Below are positions 4,576 through 50,793 of a DNA stretch of 64,000 bases, piece by piece (within the stretch, counting starts at the first letter, position 1; each line of letters begins with the position of its first letter). The notes below the pieces were generated by a model. The model was not told the DNA's origin, ran no database searches, and was given only the letters and a program-made list of their open reading frames with translations. Source of the DNA: an uncultured Candidatus Saccharibacteria bacterium. Lineage in GTDB: Bacteria > Patescibacteriota > Doudnabacteria > UBA920. A program made the position numbers and the translations under genes. The DNA is taken from the NCBI GenBank assembly GCA_964512925.1, contig CAZEKH010000005.1, forward strand, positions 4,325-68,324, read 5' to 3'.

Positions 4576-4743
4576 ACTTTTATAAATTGTGACTTACCTA
4601 TTTGGCGTCATTTGGGCCTCAGAGCTTAAAAGCTTGTTAGTTTGGTTGTTTGTTTTATAAAAAACATTCCCTTCGCCGTTTGTAGGAGTCGCATCTCCCC
4701 GCCTTTGGCGGGGGAATGACAATTTAAATGCTATATTGTTTGT

Positions 4744-5715
4744 ATGCTGTATTTACTTTTAGGGTCAGATGATTTTACGAAAAAACAATATGTACATAAT
4801 TTGGCTTTAGAAAAAAAGGCTGATTTGGTTGTGTTTGAGGCAGGGGAGGAAGTATCTACCCAAAAGATGCTTGAAACGGATTTGTTTTCCAAGCCTAAGG
4901 TTTTTGTTTTGCCAGCGCTTTTAGGGGTTTTGGAAGAACAAACTTTGGAAAAACTGATTAAATCTCCAAATGTCATAGCAATAAATACTGAAAGTTTGGA
5001 CAAAAGAAAAACTGAGAACAAAAAACTGTTAGAAAGGAAAGATGTTGTTATTCAAAATTTTGTGCTGCCCCACGGTAGAGAGTTGGACGGTTGGATATTA
5101 AAACATTTTAAAGATTTAGGCGGCCATATTTCAGCCGATGGAGCGGATGAATTGGCTAAAAGGCTTGGTCGGGATGAAGCTAAAGAAACTAAAGCGGGAG
5201 GAAAAGTTATAGCTGTGGAAGAAGTTTACAGTCTTTGGCAGGCGGACAGCGAAGTGAAAAAGCTTGTAGCTTTTTGCGGGGATAAAGTTTGTACAGCCGA
5301 AGATGTAAAAAGTTTGGTTGGCTTGGATATTGAAATTGACCCGTTTCGCATCACCAATGCCCTAGCTGACGGGAAGACCGAGGAAGCTTGGGAATATCTG
5401 GAAGGTTTTTTTAAAAACCAGGGATCTAGCGACCGTAAAGCTTTGTGCATTAACCTAAACGCCCTGCTGGCAGAACAGTTTCGTAATGTCTATATGGTTC
5501 AAGGATTTTTGCAGGAAAGGACTTCTGAAGAAGAAATTTTACAGCAAACAGGCTGGAAATCGGGAAGGCTGTTTGTGATGAAAAAGATAGCTGGCAAATT
5601 TAAACCGGAAAAAGTTTTAGAAACTCTTAAAAAACTCTCAGCCCTGGATATTGAGCTAAAAACCGGCTCAATGCCGGAAAGGGTGATGCTGGACTTGATA
5701 CTTGCGCAGTTGTAG
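4744..5715 (+). CDS. holA: DNA polymerase III delta subunit
   Basis: 323 aa; N-terminus 'MLYLLLGSDDF', length and helical C-terminus match HolA. Confidence 0.7.
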   Translation: MLYLLLGSDDFTKKQYVHNLALEKKADLVVFEAGEEVSTQKMLETDLFSKPKVFVLPALLGVLEEQTLEKLIKSPNVIAINTESLDKRKTENKKLLERKDVVIQNFVLPHGRELDGWILKHFKDLGGHISADGADELAKRLGRDEAKETKAGGKVIAVEEVYSLWQADSEVKKLVAFCGDKVCTAEDVKSLVGLDIEIDPFRITNALADGKTEEAWEYLEGFFKNQGSSDRKALCINLNALLAEQFRNVYMVQGFLQERTSEEEILQQTGWKSGRLFVMKKIAGKFKPEKVLETLKKLSALDIELKTGSMPERVMLDLILAQL

Positions 5716-31888: not shown

Positions 31889-31925
31889 CCTCTCCAAGTT
31901 TGGAGAGGGGTTAGGGGAGAGGTTG
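31889..31925. repeat. nested palindromic element (CCTCTCCAAGTTTGGAGAGG + GGTTAGGGGAGAGGTTG) whose 3' arm supplies the SD for the next gene
   Basis: GGGGAGAGG ends 7 nt before the ATG at 31930. Confidence 0.65.
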
Positions 31926-47533: not shown

Positions 47534-48538
47534 ATGGACAGTGTTATTCCTGTTACACAAATACCACAAAATTCTACTAACGAATCTTCGAATTCGCTTG
47601 TTCCTTCAGGATACCCTGGAACTGCTACAACGCAGGATTTTTTAGCAAATGACAACCCGTTTCAGCCCCAAGTTCCTAATGCGCTTAAAGCGGAAGAAAA
47701 AAATCTTTCTGAAGACAGAGTTTCTTACGCTGACGCAAAAATCCAGGAAATTGAAGTTTCTAAAATAGTTGCCAACCCTTTCCAGCCAAGAAAAACTTTT
47801 AACCCGGAGGCTTTAAAGGAGTTGGCTGATTCTATCCGCGAACACGGGGTGATTCAGCCTTTGGTGGTTACCGAAACACCAAATGGTTATGAAATTGTGG
47901 TAGGGGAAAGGCGTTTTCGGGCAAGCCAGCTGGCTGGTCTTTTGAAAGTTCCAGCTATCGTAAAAAGCCAGATGGTGGACCAGACTAAGCTGGAAGTAGC
48001 GCTCATAGAAAACATCCAAAGGCAGGAGTTAAATCCTATAGAAGAAGCGATGGCCTATGACAGGCTAATGAAGACTTTTGACTTGACCCAAGACCAGGTG
48101 GCAAAGAAAGTTGGAAAGTCGAGGCCCGCAGTTGCCAACACTGTCAGGCTCTTAAACCTGCCTGCGGAAATCCAAAGAGCTTTGATAGAAGGCAAAATCA
48201 CCGAAGGGCACGCCAGGGCGCTTTTGGGGCTCATAGACAAAGACAAGATGCTTTTAATGTTTCAGAAGATCCAGGAAGAAGGTTTAAATGTGCGCCAGGT
48301 GGAGCTGAAAGTCCGCGAGCTTTCCATCCGCAGGCGGATGGACGCGGCAATGCCCGACCCAAAGCTGATGGCGCTTGAAACCGAGCTTCGCGGCCGTTTG
48401 GGCACCCAGGTGAAGATCCAAAAACAAGGCACCGGCGGCAGGATCACTATAGAATATTTTTCCGAAGACGAGCTAAATGAGATCATCCATAAAATGGCAG
48501 AAAATAAAAATCAGGATAGCCAATATTTAACGGTTTAA
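47534..48538 (+). CDS. parB: ParB/Spo0J chromosome partitioning protein with ~60-aa low-complexity N-terminal extension
   Basis: 'IVANPFQPRKTF', 'GVIQPLVVTE..YEIVVGERRFRA' ParB box, HTH 'QVAKKVGKSRPAVANTVRLL'. Confidence 0.85.
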   Translation: MDSVIPVTQIPQNSTNESSNSLVPSGYPGTATTQDFLANDNPFQPQVPNALKAEEKNLSEDRVSYADAKIQEIEVSKIVANPFQPRKTFNPEALKELADSIREHGVIQPLVVTETPNGYEIVVGERRFRASQLAGLLKVPAIVKSQMVDQTKLEVALIENIQRQELNPIEEAMAYDRLMKTFDLTQDQVAKKVGKSRPAVANTVRLLNLPAEIQRALIEGKITEGHARALLGLIDKDKMLLMFQKIQEEGLNVRQVELKVRELSIRRRMDAAMPDPKLMALETELRGRLGTQVKIQKQGTGGRITIEYFSEDELNEIIHKMAENKNQDSQYLTV

Positions 48539-48620
48539 AACATATATCCTTGGCCTTTGATTTTTAAGCTTTTTCAGATTTTACCTATTTTTTTAAGTGC
48601 TTTTTATCTCAGTCTCTGTT

Positions 48621-48644
48621 GTCATTCCCGCGAAAGCGGGAATC
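48621..48644. repeat. TCCCG/CGGGA hairpin element (GTCATTCCCGCGAAAGCGGGAATC)
   Basis: 8-bp perfect stem. Confidence 0.5.
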
Positions 48645-48704
48645 TAAGTTTGAGAGAATTTTCGGTACTAACAGATATAAACTGTTTTTCTGTGGAAAAC
48701 TGCA

Positions 48705-48733
48705 TTTGACAAGTTTTTGCTAGGGGTATAATA
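48705..48733 (+). promoter_or_regulatory. near-consensus sigma70 promoter (TTGACA-N15/17-TATAAT)
   Basis: gcatTTGACAagtttttgctaggggTATAATat. Confidence 0.55.
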
Positions 48734-48739
48734 TATATA

Positions 48740-48893
48740 AAATCTATGCAAAGAAATTTTTCCCACAACCTCATTATTTCTCTCCCGGTCGTCAAGACCT
48801 GGGTGTTTAAAATGCGGGGTAGTGTGGGAAAGAAAAGATAACAGTAGTATAAGTAAAGTTTCCACACCATACCCCGCAAAGAGCGGGTTTTTT
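48740..48893 (+). ncRNA. candidate ~150-nt small RNA between the consensus promoter and an intrinsic terminator (identity unknown)
   Basis: no credible ORF or SD; TTTCCCACAACC pairs GGTAGTGTGGGAAA with alternative partner TTTCCACACC; terminator CCCCGC-AAAGA-GCGGG + T7 at 48871..48893. Confidence 0.35.
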
Positions 48894-49010
48894 TCTGGGT
48901 AAGAGAAACTTAGAGAAATAGAATGTTAGAGAATTAGAGAGATAGAGTGTTAGAGAGGAAGAAAGTTAGCAAAGTAGATAAAATGAACTTTAAAAATTTT
49001 TTGTAGTTTT

Positions 49011-49128
49011 ACCCCCTCTCCCGTGTGGGAGAGGGTTGGGGTGAGGTTTCAGCGATGGTAATAAAACCAAGGTTTGTTATTATCAAACATTATTACCTCA
49101 CCCTAGCCCTCTCCGTGATCGGAGAGGG
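49011..49128. repeat. symmetric composite of two palindromic elements in opposite orientation around an AT-rich inner hairpin
   Basis: CCCTCTCCCGTGTGGGAGAGGG+TTGGGGTGAGGT ... ACCTCACCCTAGC+CCTCTCCGTGATCGGAGAGG. Confidence 0.65.
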
Positions 49129-49475
49129 AATCTGAAAAAGGCTTGAAATATTTATTATTTGTTCTTTAAAACTTAACACCAACCGCCCACAAAAGTTTTT
49201 CCAACAATTGATTTACTGATTATCAGATATTCTGATCAACTTGGAACTTCTTTTGTGTGCAGTCCGTTTGTTTTTATTTCTTTTCCTCCCGCTGGTCGGG
49301 ACGGACACAAGATGGAATCTCATTCCAAAGCACATAAAAACAAAAAAGGCACACGAAAGTTTGGGCAGATCTTGGCTTACCAGCCACTAAAAAATCCCGT
49401 TTTCAAAATTCGGGATTCTGCCCATAGCTATCCGGGCCGCGCAATTTGCTGGCCCATTCGTTCGAGGAGGAAAAA

Positions 49476-49679
49476 GTGGATAGACCAAAGGCATCCACGG
49501 GTGTTGGTCAAAAATTTTGTCAAAGTTGTCGTAGAACTTCAACTTTCATCACCGTGCAAGGTGACGGACATGAGATTGAAGTTTGTGAAAACTGTTTGAC
49601 AAACGGCGAACCAATATCTAGATTCAACGATCCGGATTATGCTTCGGATGTATCGGCCATGAGACTAATCATGGTCTAA
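49476..49679 (+). CDS. hypothetical small zinc-ribbon protein (GTG start after GGAGG SD)
   Basis: 67 aa; CQSC..(17)..CENC; locally GC-rich patch. Confidence 0.3.
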   Translation: MDRPKASTGVGQKFCQSCRRTSTFITVQGDGHEIEVCENCLTNGEPISRFNDPDYASDVSAMRLIMV

Positions 49680-49808
49680 CCAGCAACAGACTTAAAGAGC
49701 AAGTACTTGGGTAGTACCCTGCAATTATACCGCTCTTCAGGTCTTAACCCCGGGGTTCACCAGCTGACCACCATCGGCTAGTGGATCCCGGGCCACTCAA
49801 TTTTTTCT

Positions 49809-49846
49809 TCCTCTCCGTTATCGGAGAGGGTAGGGTGAGGTAACGG
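49809..49846. repeat. palindromic element (CCTCTCCGTTATCGGAGAGG + GTAGGGTGAGGTAACGG)
   Basis: same family, reverse orientation. Confidence 0.65.
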
Positions 49847-50013: not shown

Positions 50014-50169
50014 ATGAGTGACACTAAACCGCAGGAGCCTGCAATTCGCGCCACAAATAAGGGTCTTAAAAAACCCCGACCACATTACGAGGTCGTAGTA
50101 CACCCGGAAACCCGGAGTGTGGATGTGATCCTAAAACCGTGCGAAGAATGCAAAACCTGCAAGACCTGA
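50014..50169 (+). CDS. hypothetical small Cys-rich protein (C-terminal CEECKTCKT)
   Basis: 51 aa from internal ATG with GGAGGAACAATG SD; followed by strong terminator. Confidence 0.35.
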   Translation: MSDTKPQEPAIRATNKGLKKPRPHYEVVVHPETRSVDVILKPCEECKTCKT

Positions 50170-50252: not shown

Positions 50253-50262
50253 AAATTCGGGT

Positions 50263-50294
50263 GTCAAACTAGTCACATATGTGACTAGTTTGAC
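50263..50294. promoter_or_regulatory. perfect 32-bp palindrome GTCAAACTAGTCACATATGTGACTAGTTTGAC
   Basis: fully self-complementary; architecture shared with 46814..46849. Confidence 0.4.
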
Positions 50295-50308
50295 AGAGGT
50301 TGGGTTTT

Positions 50309-50330
50309 TGGTTGGGATGCTTTGGAATCC
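50309..50330 (-). pseudogene. degenerate copy of the tRNA-Pro 3' terminus
   Basis: TTTTTGGTTGGGATGCTTTGGAATCC vs tRNA TTTCTATGGTCGGGATGCTGGGAATCG. Confidence 0.4.
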
Positions 50331-50452
50331 TTTTCGCTGCGACTCGTAGCCGGGGCGTTATACTCAAGCATTCCAAATAGTCGTGCTTTTCTCATGCACT
50401 TCGATTCCAATAATTTTTATACCAAATAAAAAATACCGAAATTATTTCGGTA

Positions 50453-50473
50453 TTTTTTATTTGGTCGGGATGC
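50453..50473 (-). pseudogene. copy of the tRNA-Pro 3' terminus (acceptor 3' strand + CCA + flanking T-run), 20/21 identical
   Basis: TTTTTTATTTGGTCGGGATGC vs TTTTTTCTATGGTCGGGATGC at 50560..50580; then a non-tRNA hairpin CCCCGAC..GTCGGGG. Confidence 0.5.
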
Positions 50474-50568
50474 CCCGACGACCACTTCGTGATGTCGGGG
50501 TAAACTGGGTATTTCCAACAACCTATAACCATAGAAAAAAGCGCGACACAAGAACACACTTTTTTCTA

Positions 50569-50642
50569 TGGTCGGGATGCTGGGAATCGAACCCAGACTA
50601 CATCCACCCCATGGACGCGTACTACCACTATACTACATCCCG
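50569..50642 (-). tRNA. tRNA-Pro (anticodon GGG), CCA encoded
   Basis: reverse complement: CGGGATG acceptor, D arm GTAT-AGTGGTA-GTAC, anticodon arm CGTCC-ATGGGGT-GGATG, T arm CTGGG-TTCGATT-CCCAG, CATCCCG-A-CCA. Confidence 0.8.
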
Positions 50643-50720
50643 ATTTAAACCTTAGATTAACGATGACTTATAAACTATTTTGTTCAGGTGCTTGTCCGCC
50701 GAAGCCTCGGCGAAGGAGGA

Positions 50721-50744
50721 TACTACCACTATACTACATCCCGA
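50721..50744 (-). pseudogene. 24-nt exact copy of the tRNA-Pro 5' portion (acceptor + D arm), no T arm
   Basis: TACTACCACTATACTACATCCCGA identical to 50620..50643; then hairpin CGCCGAAGCCTCGGCG. Confidence 0.5.
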
Positions 50745-50793
50745 ATTGCAAAACAGATAATATTCTAACAAAACTTAAAGTTATGGGCAAATG

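Follow-up and report, generated by a model that had tools for sequence, protein, structure and literature searches.

Organization of the unit downstream of parB

In the window (the whole 64,000-nt stretch of DNA that was analyzed), a compact unit lies on the + strand, 3' of parB. The initial annotation had presented it as a candidate small RNA with a TTGACA/TATAAT promoter, an intrinsic terminator, and an interior that holds mutually exclusive pairings and a further hairpin. We found each of these elements, together with others, at the following positions.

48691-48699, + strand: DnaA-box-like sequence TGTGGAAAA, 6 nt 5' of the -35 hexamer
48706-48734, + strand: sigma-70-type promoter, TTGACA (48706-48711) with TATAAT or TAATAT as the -10 hexamer
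48746-48841, + strand: leader ORF without SD, MQRNFSHNLIISLPVVKTWVFKMRGSVGKKR, 31 codons plus TAA (stop codon at 48839-48841)
48757-48772, + strand: segment 1, TTTTTCCCACAACCTC, codons 4-9, pairs with segment 2
48773-48787, + strand: codons ATT ATT TCT CTC CCG (Ile-Ile-x-x-Pro), the best conserved in codon and peptide alignments; candidate ribosome stall site
48784-48803, + strand: mid-ORF hairpin P1, CCCGGTC GTCAA GACCTGGG; candidate RNA-polymerase pause hairpin
48814-48831, + strand: segment 2, GCGGGGTAGTGTGGGAAA, antiterminator 5' arm, spanning the last codons of the ORF
48859-48877, + strand: segment 3, TTTCCACACCATACCCCGC, antiterminator 3' arm, whose last 5-6 nt are the terminator 5' arm
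48873-48894, + strand: intrinsic terminator CCCGC-AAAGA-GCGGG plus T7 (segments 3 and 4; stem 48873-48887, T7 48888-48894)
49476-49679, + strand: first SD-led downstream ORF, GAGGAGGA then GTG, encoding a 67-aa CxxC...CxxC zinc-ribbon protein; candidate regulated gene

The -35 hexamer can be combined with either of two -10 hexamers, TATAAT at 48727-48732 with a 15-nt spacer or TAATAT at 48729-48734 with a 17-nt spacer (score, 10/12). Within the transcript, GTGTGGGAAA (48822-48831) can pair with TTTCCCACAA (48759-48768) or with TTTCCACAC (48859-48867), and the latter pairing extends to a 17- to 19-nt inverted repeat (48813-48831 and 48860-48878) that overlaps the 5' arm of the terminator.

Conservation in related loci

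The signals of a single window, taken singly, are not beyond chance. The window contained 6 promoter-like sites versus 6.8 expected and 10 terminator-like sites versus 5.0 expected, and the element had fold z-scores of -3.3 (+ strand) and -3.0 (- strand). We count the unit as real because it is conserved in 20 other loci and not because of such single-window signals. Homologues were located by their synteny, and an nhmmer profile confirmed them. Immediately 3' of parB, the unit is full-length in 19 related loci and truncated in 2, with low nucleotide identity. Among these loci, L058-L062 come from peat and groundwater samples, and more than 120 ParB clusters at 66-83% identity are available for wider comparison. 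Comparison of the parB-maf interval with the relatives by blastn and tblastx returned tRNA-Pro as the sole match, and blastn similarity between the units is nearly nil despite their common architecture. A scan of both strands of the 64-kb window for this architecture (ORF of 20-40 codons, terminator, and antiterminator of -12 kcal/mol or lower) gave this site as the single match. The homologue promoters (13 scanned) consist of TTGACA or TTGACC, a 16- to 17-nt spacer, and a TATACT/TATAAT-like -10, with scores of 10-12 of 12, and every homologue ends in a terminator with a T-run. We interpret the flagged stretch as a short transcript, strongly promoted and conserved in tiny uncultured CPR/Doudnabacteria-like bacteria. 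Its description as a candidate small RNA holds insofar as it is an independent conserved transcription unit, but it is probably not plain non-coding RNA, since an ORF is kept in 19/19 copies.

The initial annotation had reported no resemblance to SRP RNA, 6S RNA, tmRNA, or RNase P RNA, and had pointed to an Rfam scan as a check. At the Rfam gathering score, the window and 14 related loci yielded tRNAs alone, and ARAGORN found no tmRNA; no known family matched. Rfam 15 E-value scans of the element from the window and from locus L059 gave noise-level matches (E > 0.6 for the window). A weak sub-threshold likeness to the Trp, Leu, and Phe leaders (E = 3-6) is only suggestive: the scores were 14.4 and 13.0 bits for Trp_leader (gathering score, 41), 13.3 bits for Leu_leader (50), and 14.5 bits for Phe_leader (55). 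A literature search found no account of such an element in CPR bacteria.

A conserved short ORF without an SD sequence

The annotation had also stated that no SD-led ORF lies within the element. This is true as far as the SD is concerned, but it passes over the SD-less 31-codon ATG ORF, which is conserved in every homologue. An ATG start followed by 25-34 open codons was found in 19/19 full-length copies; the remaining frames contain early stops. Over 11 lineages, the product of the chance probabilities was 4.9e-8 for an ORF of at least 25 codons and 1.6e-11 for one of 25-34 codons. Two antisense ORFs on the - strand of the window (85 and 65 aa) have no conserved counterparts in the relatives. 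The SD is absent 5' of the ORF in most copies, while neighboring genes have strong SDs, and some copies of the ORF are nearly leaderless. Translation of the ORF is predicted, with caution in view of the missing SD.

Codon choice in the leader ORFs is skewed. The Ile codons of 15 leader ORFs comprise 28 ATT, 3 ATC, and no ATA, whereas 36% of those in the window genes are ATA; 10 of the 16 Pro codons in these 15 ORFs are CCG, and AAG outnumbers AAA 27 to 10. This skew, together with the 42 nt that are invariant between L007 and L059, synonymous sites included, points to constraint at the RNA level. Across homologues, the nucleotides AUUAU, CCCG, AAG, and UUUGG are conserved past coding needs. 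Differences by codon position were flat over all pairs (0.51/0.53/0.52), and the closest pair, L006 and L058, was the sole one with a coding signature (2/3/8 differences by codon position; 6 synonymous versus 5 non-synonymous). Of the first 15 copies, about 9 have Ile codons in tandem, with at most 2-3 Ile codons. Leader Ile content is not enriched (7.1% versus 7.4%), and none of the leader ORFs contains a codon run for one regulatory amino acid. The conserved Ile-Ile-x-x-Pro codons may nevertheless serve as a ribosome stall site.

A loose motif, M-x7-I-x3-P-x3-K-x3-W-x4-R, is common to the encoded peptides, and the residues near its Pro and Lys follow a hydrophobic pattern; the peptides have a mean column identity of 29-34%. 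All are net positive (+2 to +8), with 1.3% Asp plus Glu compared to 11.6% in the window genes. They are laid out as a polar N-terminus, a hydrophobic core of about 13-19 residues that is broken by Pro and Lys (maximum 17-residue Kyte-Doolittle mean, 0.9-1.7), and a basic C-terminus. A Pfam search with the leader peptide gave no match, an exact-product look-up found no such gene on record, and phmmer against 1.84 billion representative proteins returned no credible homologue, the one match being spurious (a 742-aa repetitive protein).

Lineage-specific complementarity of the RNA segments

RNAalifold on a MAFFT alignment of the homologues gave no consensus structure, because the helices were out of register. 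Thus, we evaluated complementarity by cross-lineage permutation tests. Segment 2 paired with the segment 3 of its own lineage at -16.9 kcal/mol versus -12.7 kcal/mol with that of other lineages, and 0 of 50,000 permutations reached the observed value (p <= 2e-5). Complementarity of segments 1 and 2 was likewise lineage specific (p = 0.0045 with 11 lineages and p = 3.8e-4 with 17 lineages), with weak or absent pairing in L002 and L057, whereas the control combination of segments 1 and 3 was not (p = 0.63). The mutually exclusive pairings that had been read from the window alone are therefore backed by covariation at homologous loci, as the annotation had proposed to check. P1 also showed stronger complementarity to its own partner than to others (-11.2 versus -8.1 kcal/mol; p = 5e-5); it occupies the same place in the homologues with differing inner-helix sequences, and in most of them a U-rich tract comes next. 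Hairpin and tract together may constitute an RNA-polymerase pause site. A shuffle test of the antiterminator was significant when sequences were combined (Fisher p = 0.002), with individual sequences moderately significant at most.

In the nascent RNA (nt 1-90), segments 1 and 2 form a hairpin of -32.1 kcal/mol, and the antiterminator hairpin of the window has a value of -25.7 kcal/mol. The minimum-free-energy structures of the homologues flip between two conformers. In none of the 13 copies evaluated was the antiterminator state more stable than the segment 1-segment 2 hairpin plus terminator, which makes termination the default state. In 19/19 copies, the stop codon starts 5-25 nt past the first segment 2 base that pairs with the terminator arm, and the terminator arm starts at least 25 nt past the stop codon. 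With this spacing, a ribosome that terminates on the ORF would mask segment 2 and leave segments 3 and 4 exposed.

A DnaA-box-like site at the promoter

The sequence TGTGGAWAA is placed 5-7 nt 5' of the -35 hexamer in the window and most relatives. In 6 relatives, the exact box is followed by N3-12 and TTGACA; most others have a one-mismatch or inverted box at the same position, and L008, L056, and L060 lack the box or have it elsewhere. A box of fixed position (TTATCCACA or TTTTCCACA) thus accompanies the promoter in the window and most relatives. From the match to the consensus, DnaA may bind at this site.

Genes downstream of the terminator

A consensus scan found no promoter-like site between 48895 and 49475, that is, ahead of the 67-aa zinc-ribbon ORF, and a terminator-like hairpin (49780-49797) lies 3' of this ORF. 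Likewise, in 10/12 loci the scan detected no promoter-like site from the terminator to the first SD-led ORF. The distance to the next gene ranges from 45 to 582 nt. The downstream genes are variable small zinc-ribbon orphans and not a conserved operon, with little homology between lineages: the 67-aa protein is homologous to L004 7475-7651 only (E = 3e-8), and the downstream small proteins gave no PHROG match and no significant Pfam match. In three relatives, the same interval contains units of a second family, apparently unrelated, that also combine an ORF with an antiterminator/terminator and lie 70-77 nt 5' of SD-led genes, which suggests that these genomes employ this design as a leader of genes. 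The small ORFs of this second family are clearly TM-like (Kyte-Doolittle, 2.25-2.44).

A proposed ribosome-dependent attenuator

The kept ORF, the position of its stop codon, and the mostly promoter-less downstream genes point to either a ribosome-dependent attenuator or a small-protein mRNA. The features that characterize attenuators were found together: a conserved 5' ORF, an antiterminator with evolutionary support, a 1:2 pairing inside the ORF, and the placement of the stop codon. Our best reading, which we hold with moderate confidence, is that the unit represents a new family of leader-peptide, trp-type transcription attenuators. According to this model, the strong promoter, probably modulated by DnaA via the adjacent box, would produce a transcript that opens with the short SD-less or nearly leaderless ORF. 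If no ribosome engaged the transcript, segment 1 would pair with segment 2 around P1, segments 3 and 4 would form the terminator, and transcription would stop at about nt 150. A ribosome that reached the stop codon would cover segment 2, and the terminator would form again. Only a ribosome stalled early (at about codons 5-15, which include Ile-Ile-x-x-Pro) would hide segment 1 and free segment 2. The latter would then pair with segment 3 as the antiterminator, allowing read-through into the promoter-less small zinc-ribbon gene or genes. The signal for stalling may be Ile-tRNA supply or general translation stress, and the terminated RNA of about 150 nt could have a function in trans. Several observations speak against the attenuator reading: the missing SD in most copies, the absence of a regulatory codon run or of Ile enrichment, the variable downstream genes and their variable distance, the flat codon-position differences over all pairs, and the moderate significance of the shuffle test for individual sequences.

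An extended version of this model, which we consider speculative and rather improbable as a whole, would make the unit the first ribosome-dependent attenuator family to be described in CPR/Patescibacteria. Its promoter would be gated by DnaA, and hence by replication-initiation status, and its switch would sense slowed translation, possibly through Ile-tRNA supply, in organisms unable to make their own amino acids. It would couple both states to a variable zinc-ribbon cassette beside parB, and the terminated 150-nt RNA and/or the basic peptide would also act in trans.

Relation to known systems

The general leader-peptide attenuator model has been described (PMC1183508). The classical leaders of amino-acid operons (trpL, hisL, leuL, ilvL, pheL, and thrL; RF00513, RF00514, RF00512, RF01859, and RF00506) have ORFs of 14-32 codons, compared to 25-34 codons here. 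As in those leaders, there are four segments with 1:2, 2:3, and 3:4 alternatives, a stop codon that lets the terminating ribosome mask segment 2, and an intrinsic terminator, with termination as the default in the absence of translation. In contrast to them, the present ORF has no single-codon run and no SD, some copies are nearly leaderless, and no biosynthetic operon follows. CPR bacteria largely lack amino-acid biosynthetic operons. Further differences are the additional hairpin P1 nested between segments 1 and 2, the DnaA-box-like site at the promoter, and the Rfam scores (13-14 bits versus gathering scores of 41-55); none of the Trp, His, Leu, Phe, and Thr leader families of Rfam was matched at its gathering score.

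Ribosome-mediated attenuators that sense stress or antibiotics, such as Bacillus subtilis bmrB-bmrCD (PMC4191407), the vmlR leader (PMC9226507), and the Escherichia coli toiL uORF (10.1101/682021), are also similar, as are PASIFIC-type terminator/antiterminator predictions (PMC5314783). In the bmrB-, vmlR-, and toiL-type cases, the translation status of the uORF selects terminator or antiterminator, an amino-acid-specific codon run is not required, and the regulated genes are non-biosynthetic. However, those systems control resistance or transport genes, whereas orphan zinc-ribbon ORFs are found here, with no antibiotic link for this element; parB synteny and a DnaA box have not been described for them. 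The Sinorhizobium meliloti trpL attenuator has the sRNA rnTrpL and the peptide peTrpL (PMC7298713, PMC7968998). Similarly, the terminated transcript and the leader peptide of the present unit could each act in trans, and functions of this kind would account for a conservation of the element that exceeds that of the genes after it. Unlike the case of S. meliloti, there is no sequence relation and there are no trp genes.

Regulatory RNAs and attenuation are essentially uncharted in CPR/Patescibacteria, which have reduced genomes, obtain amino acids and nucleotides from hosts or neighbors, and cannot be grown for classical genetics. The ends and the read-through ratio of a two-state attenuator would be legible in metatranscriptomes, which would make it a reporter of translational state in situ. 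Through its DnaA box, the promoter also hints at a connection between replication control and gene expression that could be tested. More generally, what looks like a candidate sRNA between a promoter and a terminator may conceal an SD-less leader ORF that standard gene callers do not report.

Alternative explanations

The unit could instead be a self-contained gene whose product is a small, basic, hydrophobic peptide (25-34 aa), with RNA structures that adjust the translation, stability, or termination of this gene and do not control downstream genes; its RNA might have a dual function like rnTrpL/peTrpL. We consider this unlikely, though it carries some weight. The ORF-bearing transcript is the conserved unit while the downstream genes vary by lineage, the peptides share a motif and are positive and nearly without Asp and Glu, the L006/L058 pair has an excess of third-position and synonymous changes, and a strong promoter with a strong terminator suits a complete gene. 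Against this, peptide conservation is low, codon choice departs strongly from genomic usage (ATA in 0/31 Ile codons, besides the AAG and CCG preferences), and a gene that stands alone would have no need of an antiterminator co-varying with its terminator. Nor is there an SD, a Pfam match, a gene call on record, or a credible homologue in the protein search. A ribosome-independent RNA in which the ORF is incidental or secondary, either a trans-acting sRNA or a riboswitch-like or protein-binding attenuator, is unlikely to the same degree. In the riboswitch-like version, the segment 1-segment 2 pairing and P1 would be the sensor (an aptamer or protein site), and the 2:3 and 3:4 pairings would be the expression platform. 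This is the typical layout of an OFF riboswitch, with the 3' strand of the sensor helix common to the antiterminator. It accords with a nucleotide conservation that exceeds coding needs, the missing SD, the flat codon-position variation across all pairs, and a strong promoter and terminator, from which one would expect an abundant transcript of about 150 nt. However, it leaves unexplained the invariant ATG with its frame of 25-34 codons (19/19; p of about 5e-8) and the constant placement of the stop codon at segment 2. Furthermore, the putative sensor is a simple hairpin in an internal loop without a complex conserved junction, and no Rfam family matches.

A locus resembling type I toxin-antitoxin systems, with the structured mRNA of a small toxic membrane peptide under the control of an antisense RNA, is very unlikely. 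As in the mRNAs of hok, tisB, ldr, ibs, and fst, a small basic hydrophobic ORF with a polar N-terminus, hydrophobic core, and basic C-terminus lies in a highly structured mRNA with alternative folds, and the TM-like second small-ORF family is found nearby in relatives. Those toxins differ from the present peptides, whose short, Pro/Lys-broken core stays below TM hydrophobicity, and a terminator-overlapping antiterminator is not among their features. A promoter-like site on the reverse strand was absent in 11/13 loci, with marginal 9-of-12 sites in the other two, and there is no conserved antisense ORF. Least probable is that the unit belongs to a replication origin or to a cluster of DnaA boxes, in which the repeated TGTGGGAAA, TTTCCCACA, and TTTCCACAC would be DnaA boxes and not helix arms. 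The perfect TGTGGAAAA at 48691-48699, three 8-of-9 box-like sequences within the transcript, and the adjoining parB speak in its favor. However, the internal box-like sequences are not conserved, the relatives having unrelated, mutually complementary sequences at the same positions; exact TGTGGAWAA boxes number just 4 in the whole 64-kb window; GC skew is positive and genes lie on the + strand on both sides; dnaA is absent among the neighbors examined; and no parS consensus was found within 3 mismatches. We ruled out an origin of replication on the basis of GC skew, gene orientation, and the non-conserved internal motifs.

A tRNA-Pro(GGG) gene neighbors the unit and lies on the opposite strand in the window. 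Pro-sensing control of this tRNA by the leader was rejected because of the orientation of the gene and because the Pro codon of the leader is CCG, which the GGG anticodon does not read.

A promoter-terminator unit follows parB in the window

Just downstream of parB lies a unit made of a promoter, a short open reading frame without a Shine-Dalgarno (SD) sequence (48746-48841), and an intrinsic terminator, hereafter the element. The initial annotation had proposed a candidate small RNA with a consensus promoter and an intrinsic terminator at 48705-48893. All the features on which that proposal relied were found in the window sequence (48690-48895), and the reading of them as a small RNA received partial support. 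Together with the segments named here, they are:

48706-48711, plus strand, -35 box TTGACA
48727-48732, -10 box TATAAT, 15-nt spacer to TTGACA
48729-48734, alternative -10 box TAATAT, 17-nt spacer to TTGACA
48757-48772, segment 1 (codons 4 to 9)
48784-48803, hairpin P1, arms CCCGGTC/GACCTGGG
48814-48831, segment 2 (ORF 3' end)
48822-48831, GTGTGGGAAA, complementary to TTTCCCACAA (48759-48768) and to TTTCCACAC (48859-48867)
48859-48877, segment 3
48873-48887, intrinsic terminator CCCGC-AAAGA-GCGGG, followed by T7 at 48888-48894; its 3' side is segment 4

The 3' pairing of GTGTGGGAAA lengthens to GCGGGGTAGTGTGGGAA / TTTCCACACCATACCCCGC (inverted repeat I7) and thus takes over the terminator 5' arm. 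Within this single sequence, promoter and terminator matches did not outnumber those in shuffled sequence, and the fold z-score of -3.3 had a near match on the other strand (-3.0). From the window alone, a function of the element is not proven.

Rfam 15 at the gathering score returned four tRNAs and no other family in the whole window, and ARAGORN found no tmRNA. A permissive Rfam scan of 48540-49250 yielded only noise (E>0.6), one match being a 14-bit Trp_leader. The element, which the initial annotation could not match to SRP RNA, 6S, tmRNA, or RNase P motifs, was assigned to no known family by Rfam/Infernal, and it lies outside every Rfam leader family, because the scores are far under gathering. 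Separately, a GTCATTCCCGCGAAAGCGGGAATC hairpin without a T-run (48618-48645) is located after the parB stop codon and ahead of the element promoter; its Rfam match to FtrB is at noise level.

The element recurs downstream of parB in relatives

In the window, genes for SHMT, BacA/UppP, a PAP2 phosphatase, tRNA-Leu, and ParB (47534-48538) precede the element, which is followed by ∼2.2 kb without long ORFs and then by Maf; this stretch holds two small ORFs led by an SD and, on the minus strand, tRNA-Pro(GGG). The window ParB shares 83% identity with its counterpart in a Candidatus Doudnabacteria MAG, and many relatives exist, whose parB neighborhoods are designated here by L numbers. Comparison of the intergenic region with these relatives by blastn and tblastx detected only the tRNA-Pro. 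Despite this silence, the element architecture recurred when the DNA 3' of parB was read, and an nhmmer profile then found a single copy per locus, in every case after parB, also in loci outside profile building. Full-length copies numbered 19 (the window; L001, L002, L004, L006, L007, and L008; L056 to L060 and L062; L092 to L097), and contig ends cut two more (L003 and L005). The element is missing from five relatives (L009, L047, L061, L098, and L099), and in L047, L098, and L099 the tRNA-Pro directly follows parB. An ECF-type sigma factor occurs downstream of the parB interval in L001, L092, L094, and L099, accompanied in L099 by a DUF5667 protein; it has no counterpart in the window.

The promoters of the copies combine TTGACA, a 16- to 17-nt spacer, and TATACT or TATAAT (scores of 10 to 12 of 12). 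In most copies, a DnaA-box-like TGTGGAWAA, a nonamer found only 4 times in the 64-kb window, lies 5 to 7 nt 5' of the -35 box, and the exact composite of TGTGGAWAA and TTGACA is present in 6 relatives. A leader of 0 to 40 nt, lacking an SD in most copies, precedes an invariant ATG and an ORF of 25 to 34 codons, which contains P1 at its middle, usually with a U-tract next, and a G-rich segment at its 3' end. Each terminator carries a T-run. Between -10 and ATG, the 5' leaders of L006, L007, L056 to L060, L093 to L095, and L097 share a recurrent (A/G)TTAAGTAA-like motif, which in the longer-leader copies lies 10 to 25 nt upstream of ATG and is not complementary to the anti-SD.

Alternative pairings covary among lineages

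In every copy, segment 3, the 5' arm of the terminator, can pair with segment 2 (-9 to -26 kcal/mol). By minimum free energy, the homologues fold in one of two ways, either segment 2:segment 3 or segment 1:segment 2 plus terminator. In the 13 copies compared, segment 1:segment 2 plus terminator equalled or exceeded the antiterminator state in stability. Since a MAFFT alignment did not bring the helices into register, we assessed covariation by comparing the pairing energy of each segment with its own partner and with those from other lineages.

Pairing energies with own and other lineages' partners (kcal/mol)
Segment 2:segment 3; own -16.9, other -12.7; 0/50,000 permutations as good
Segment 1:segment 2; own -13.8, other -11.5; p=3.8e-4
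Segment 1:segment 3 (control); own -2.5, other -2.6; p=0.63
P1 arms; own -11.2, other -8.1; p=5e-5

Against dinucleotide shuffles, the antiterminator gave a Fisher p of 0.002, a test that is weak for individual sequences because shuffles keep the G-rich composition. Counted from the first segment 2 base paired to the terminator arm, the stop codon starts 5 to 25 nt further on; the terminator arm itself starts at least 25 nt past the stop codon. In the window, nascent nt 1 to 90 fold into a segment 1:segment 2 stem capped by P1 (-32.1 kcal/mol).

The leader ORF is constrained as a frame and as RNA

The ATG frame is open for 25 to 34 codons in every copy, and the other two frames usually stop early. 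Estimated from shuffles as a product over 11 lineages, the chance of such a frame is 4.9e-8 for at least 25 codons and 1.6e-11 for 25 to 34 codons; no conserved antisense ORF was found among relatives. The peptides are basic, nearly devoid of Asp and Glu, and loosely alike (M-x7-I-x3-P-x3-K-x3-W-x4-R; column identity, 29 to 34%). Over all pairs, the three codon positions differ equally often, and the closest pair, L006/L058, shows 2/3/8 differences by codon position (6 synonymous and 5 nonsynonymous codon changes). Codon choice departs from genomic usage for Ile (ATT 28, ATC 3, ATA 0), Lys (AAG 27 versus AAA 10), and Pro (CCG 10/16). Between L007 and L059, the 42 nt from P1 to segment 2 are unchanged, synonymous sites included. 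These data show that the frame is kept, with much of the sequence constraint acting on the RNA. This would be expected for a leader ORF inside a switch and would fit less well a protein selected for its own sequence.

Genes downstream of the element vary

The genes after the element are lineage-variable small SD-led ORFs of 50 to 96 aa, often CxxC...CxxC zinc ribbons, without any significant Pfam or PHROG match. Homology among them was detectable only between window 49476-49679 and L004 7475-7651. The stretch from the terminator to the first SD-led ORF lacked any promoter-like site in 10 of 12 loci, which may fit dependence of the downstream genes on read-through. This gap measures 582 nt in the window, of which ∼48896-49230 is a repeat insertion absent from L001, the closest relative. 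In the same interval, three relatives have units of a second family, each a small ORF with an antiterminator/terminator (L007 7900-8040, L060 3538-3690, and L097 about 4668-4815); this family was not found in the window. The location of these units 70 to 77 nt 5' of SD-led genes suggests that these genomes use the design repeatedly as a gene leader. The second-family peptides, which are similar to MSNLTAQIISILSLVVGVVVNIGKKGRLELD, are TM-like; those of L007 and L060, the two that were scored, have Kyte-Doolittle values of 2.25 to 2.44. The small Cys-rich SD-led ORFs of the window are 49476-49679 (67 aa), whose product is homologous to a 58-aa ORF of L004, and 50014-50169 (51 aa).

A ribosome-dependent attenuator is the best explanation

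We consider a ribosome-dependent attenuator the best explanation of the element, with confidence that is about evenly balanced. Its four segments would follow the logic of trp-type attenuation. With no ribosome, or with one arriving at the stop codon, the terminator would form; a ribosome stalled at about codons 5 to 15 would mask segment 1 and free segment 2 for the antiterminator. P1 and the U-tract after it could plausibly be a pause signal that keeps RNA polymerase and the ribosome in step. Exactly inside the proposed stalling window fall the codons with the highest conservation (ATT ATT/ATC, two variable codons, CCG). The complete lack of ATA would be consistent with the sensing of a single Ile isoacceptor; this is speculative, as the peptides show no overall enrichment in Ile.

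A purely cis-regulatory reading has its main weakness in the variability of the downstream genes; the conserved product may instead be the terminated RNA or its peptide. A stand-alone micropeptide gene or dual-function RNA would account for such a product; we find it unlikely, since much of the sequence constraint acts on the RNA. Equally unlikely, beside an ATG frame kept open in all copies, is a ribosome-independent sRNA, riboswitch, or protein-binding attenuator. A type I toxin-antitoxin is very improbable, as no conserved antisense promoter was found and the peptide hydrophobicity is under the TM range. The DnaA-box-like promoter motif might evoke oriC or a DnaA-box cluster; however, box-like motifs inside the element are not conserved and neither a skew switch nor a strand switch was seen, so that we give this origin hardly any credence.

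The working proposed for the attenuator resembles that of classical leader-peptide attenuators and of ribosome-mediated attenuators sensing translation stress (PMC1183508, PMC4191407, PMC9226507, PMC5314783). Unlike Rfam leader families, the element has neither a regulatory codon run nor a cognate operon. No description of such an element was found in the literature on CPR/Patescibacteria. Its unusual traits are the SD-less or near-leaderless ORF, the promoter with a DnaA-box-like site, the conserved parB linkage, and the variable cargo.

Repeats and palindromes occur elsewhere in the window

The insertion of ∼310 nt directly after the terminator (48896-49230), absent from L001, comprises four tandem AGAGAAnTAGAG-type units (48904-48967, 16 and 8 nt apart) and an inverted repeat with 34-nt arms (49014-49047 / 49095-49128) containing CCCTCTCC..GGAGAGGG palindromes plus GGGGTGAGG. 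Four sites in the window, where 0 are expected, have the palindrome CCTCTCC-N-GGAGAGG, often with TAGGGTGAGG after it; they resemble a small repeat family of the REP or MITE type:

31889-31908, CCTCTCC-N-GGAGAGG site
49015-49034, CCTCTCC-N-GGAGAGG site
49108-49127, CCTCTCC-N-GGAGAGG site
49810-49843, CCTCTCC-N-GGAGAGG site

The tRNA-Pro(GGG) gene (50569-50642, minus strand) is flanked by partial duplicates of both its ends (D3 and D5; 50300-50320, 50453-50473, 50560-50580, 50620-50646, and 50721-50747), which are probably scars of integration events. Its orientation varies even among close relatives, being minus in L006 and plus in L058. Two perfect palindromes lie nearby: I6 (50262-50295; 17-nt arms without spacer, TGTCAAACTAGTCACAT / ATGTGACTAGTTTGACA) and I2 (50421-50465; 22-nt arms, 1-nt spacer), the latter resembling a bidirectional terminator.
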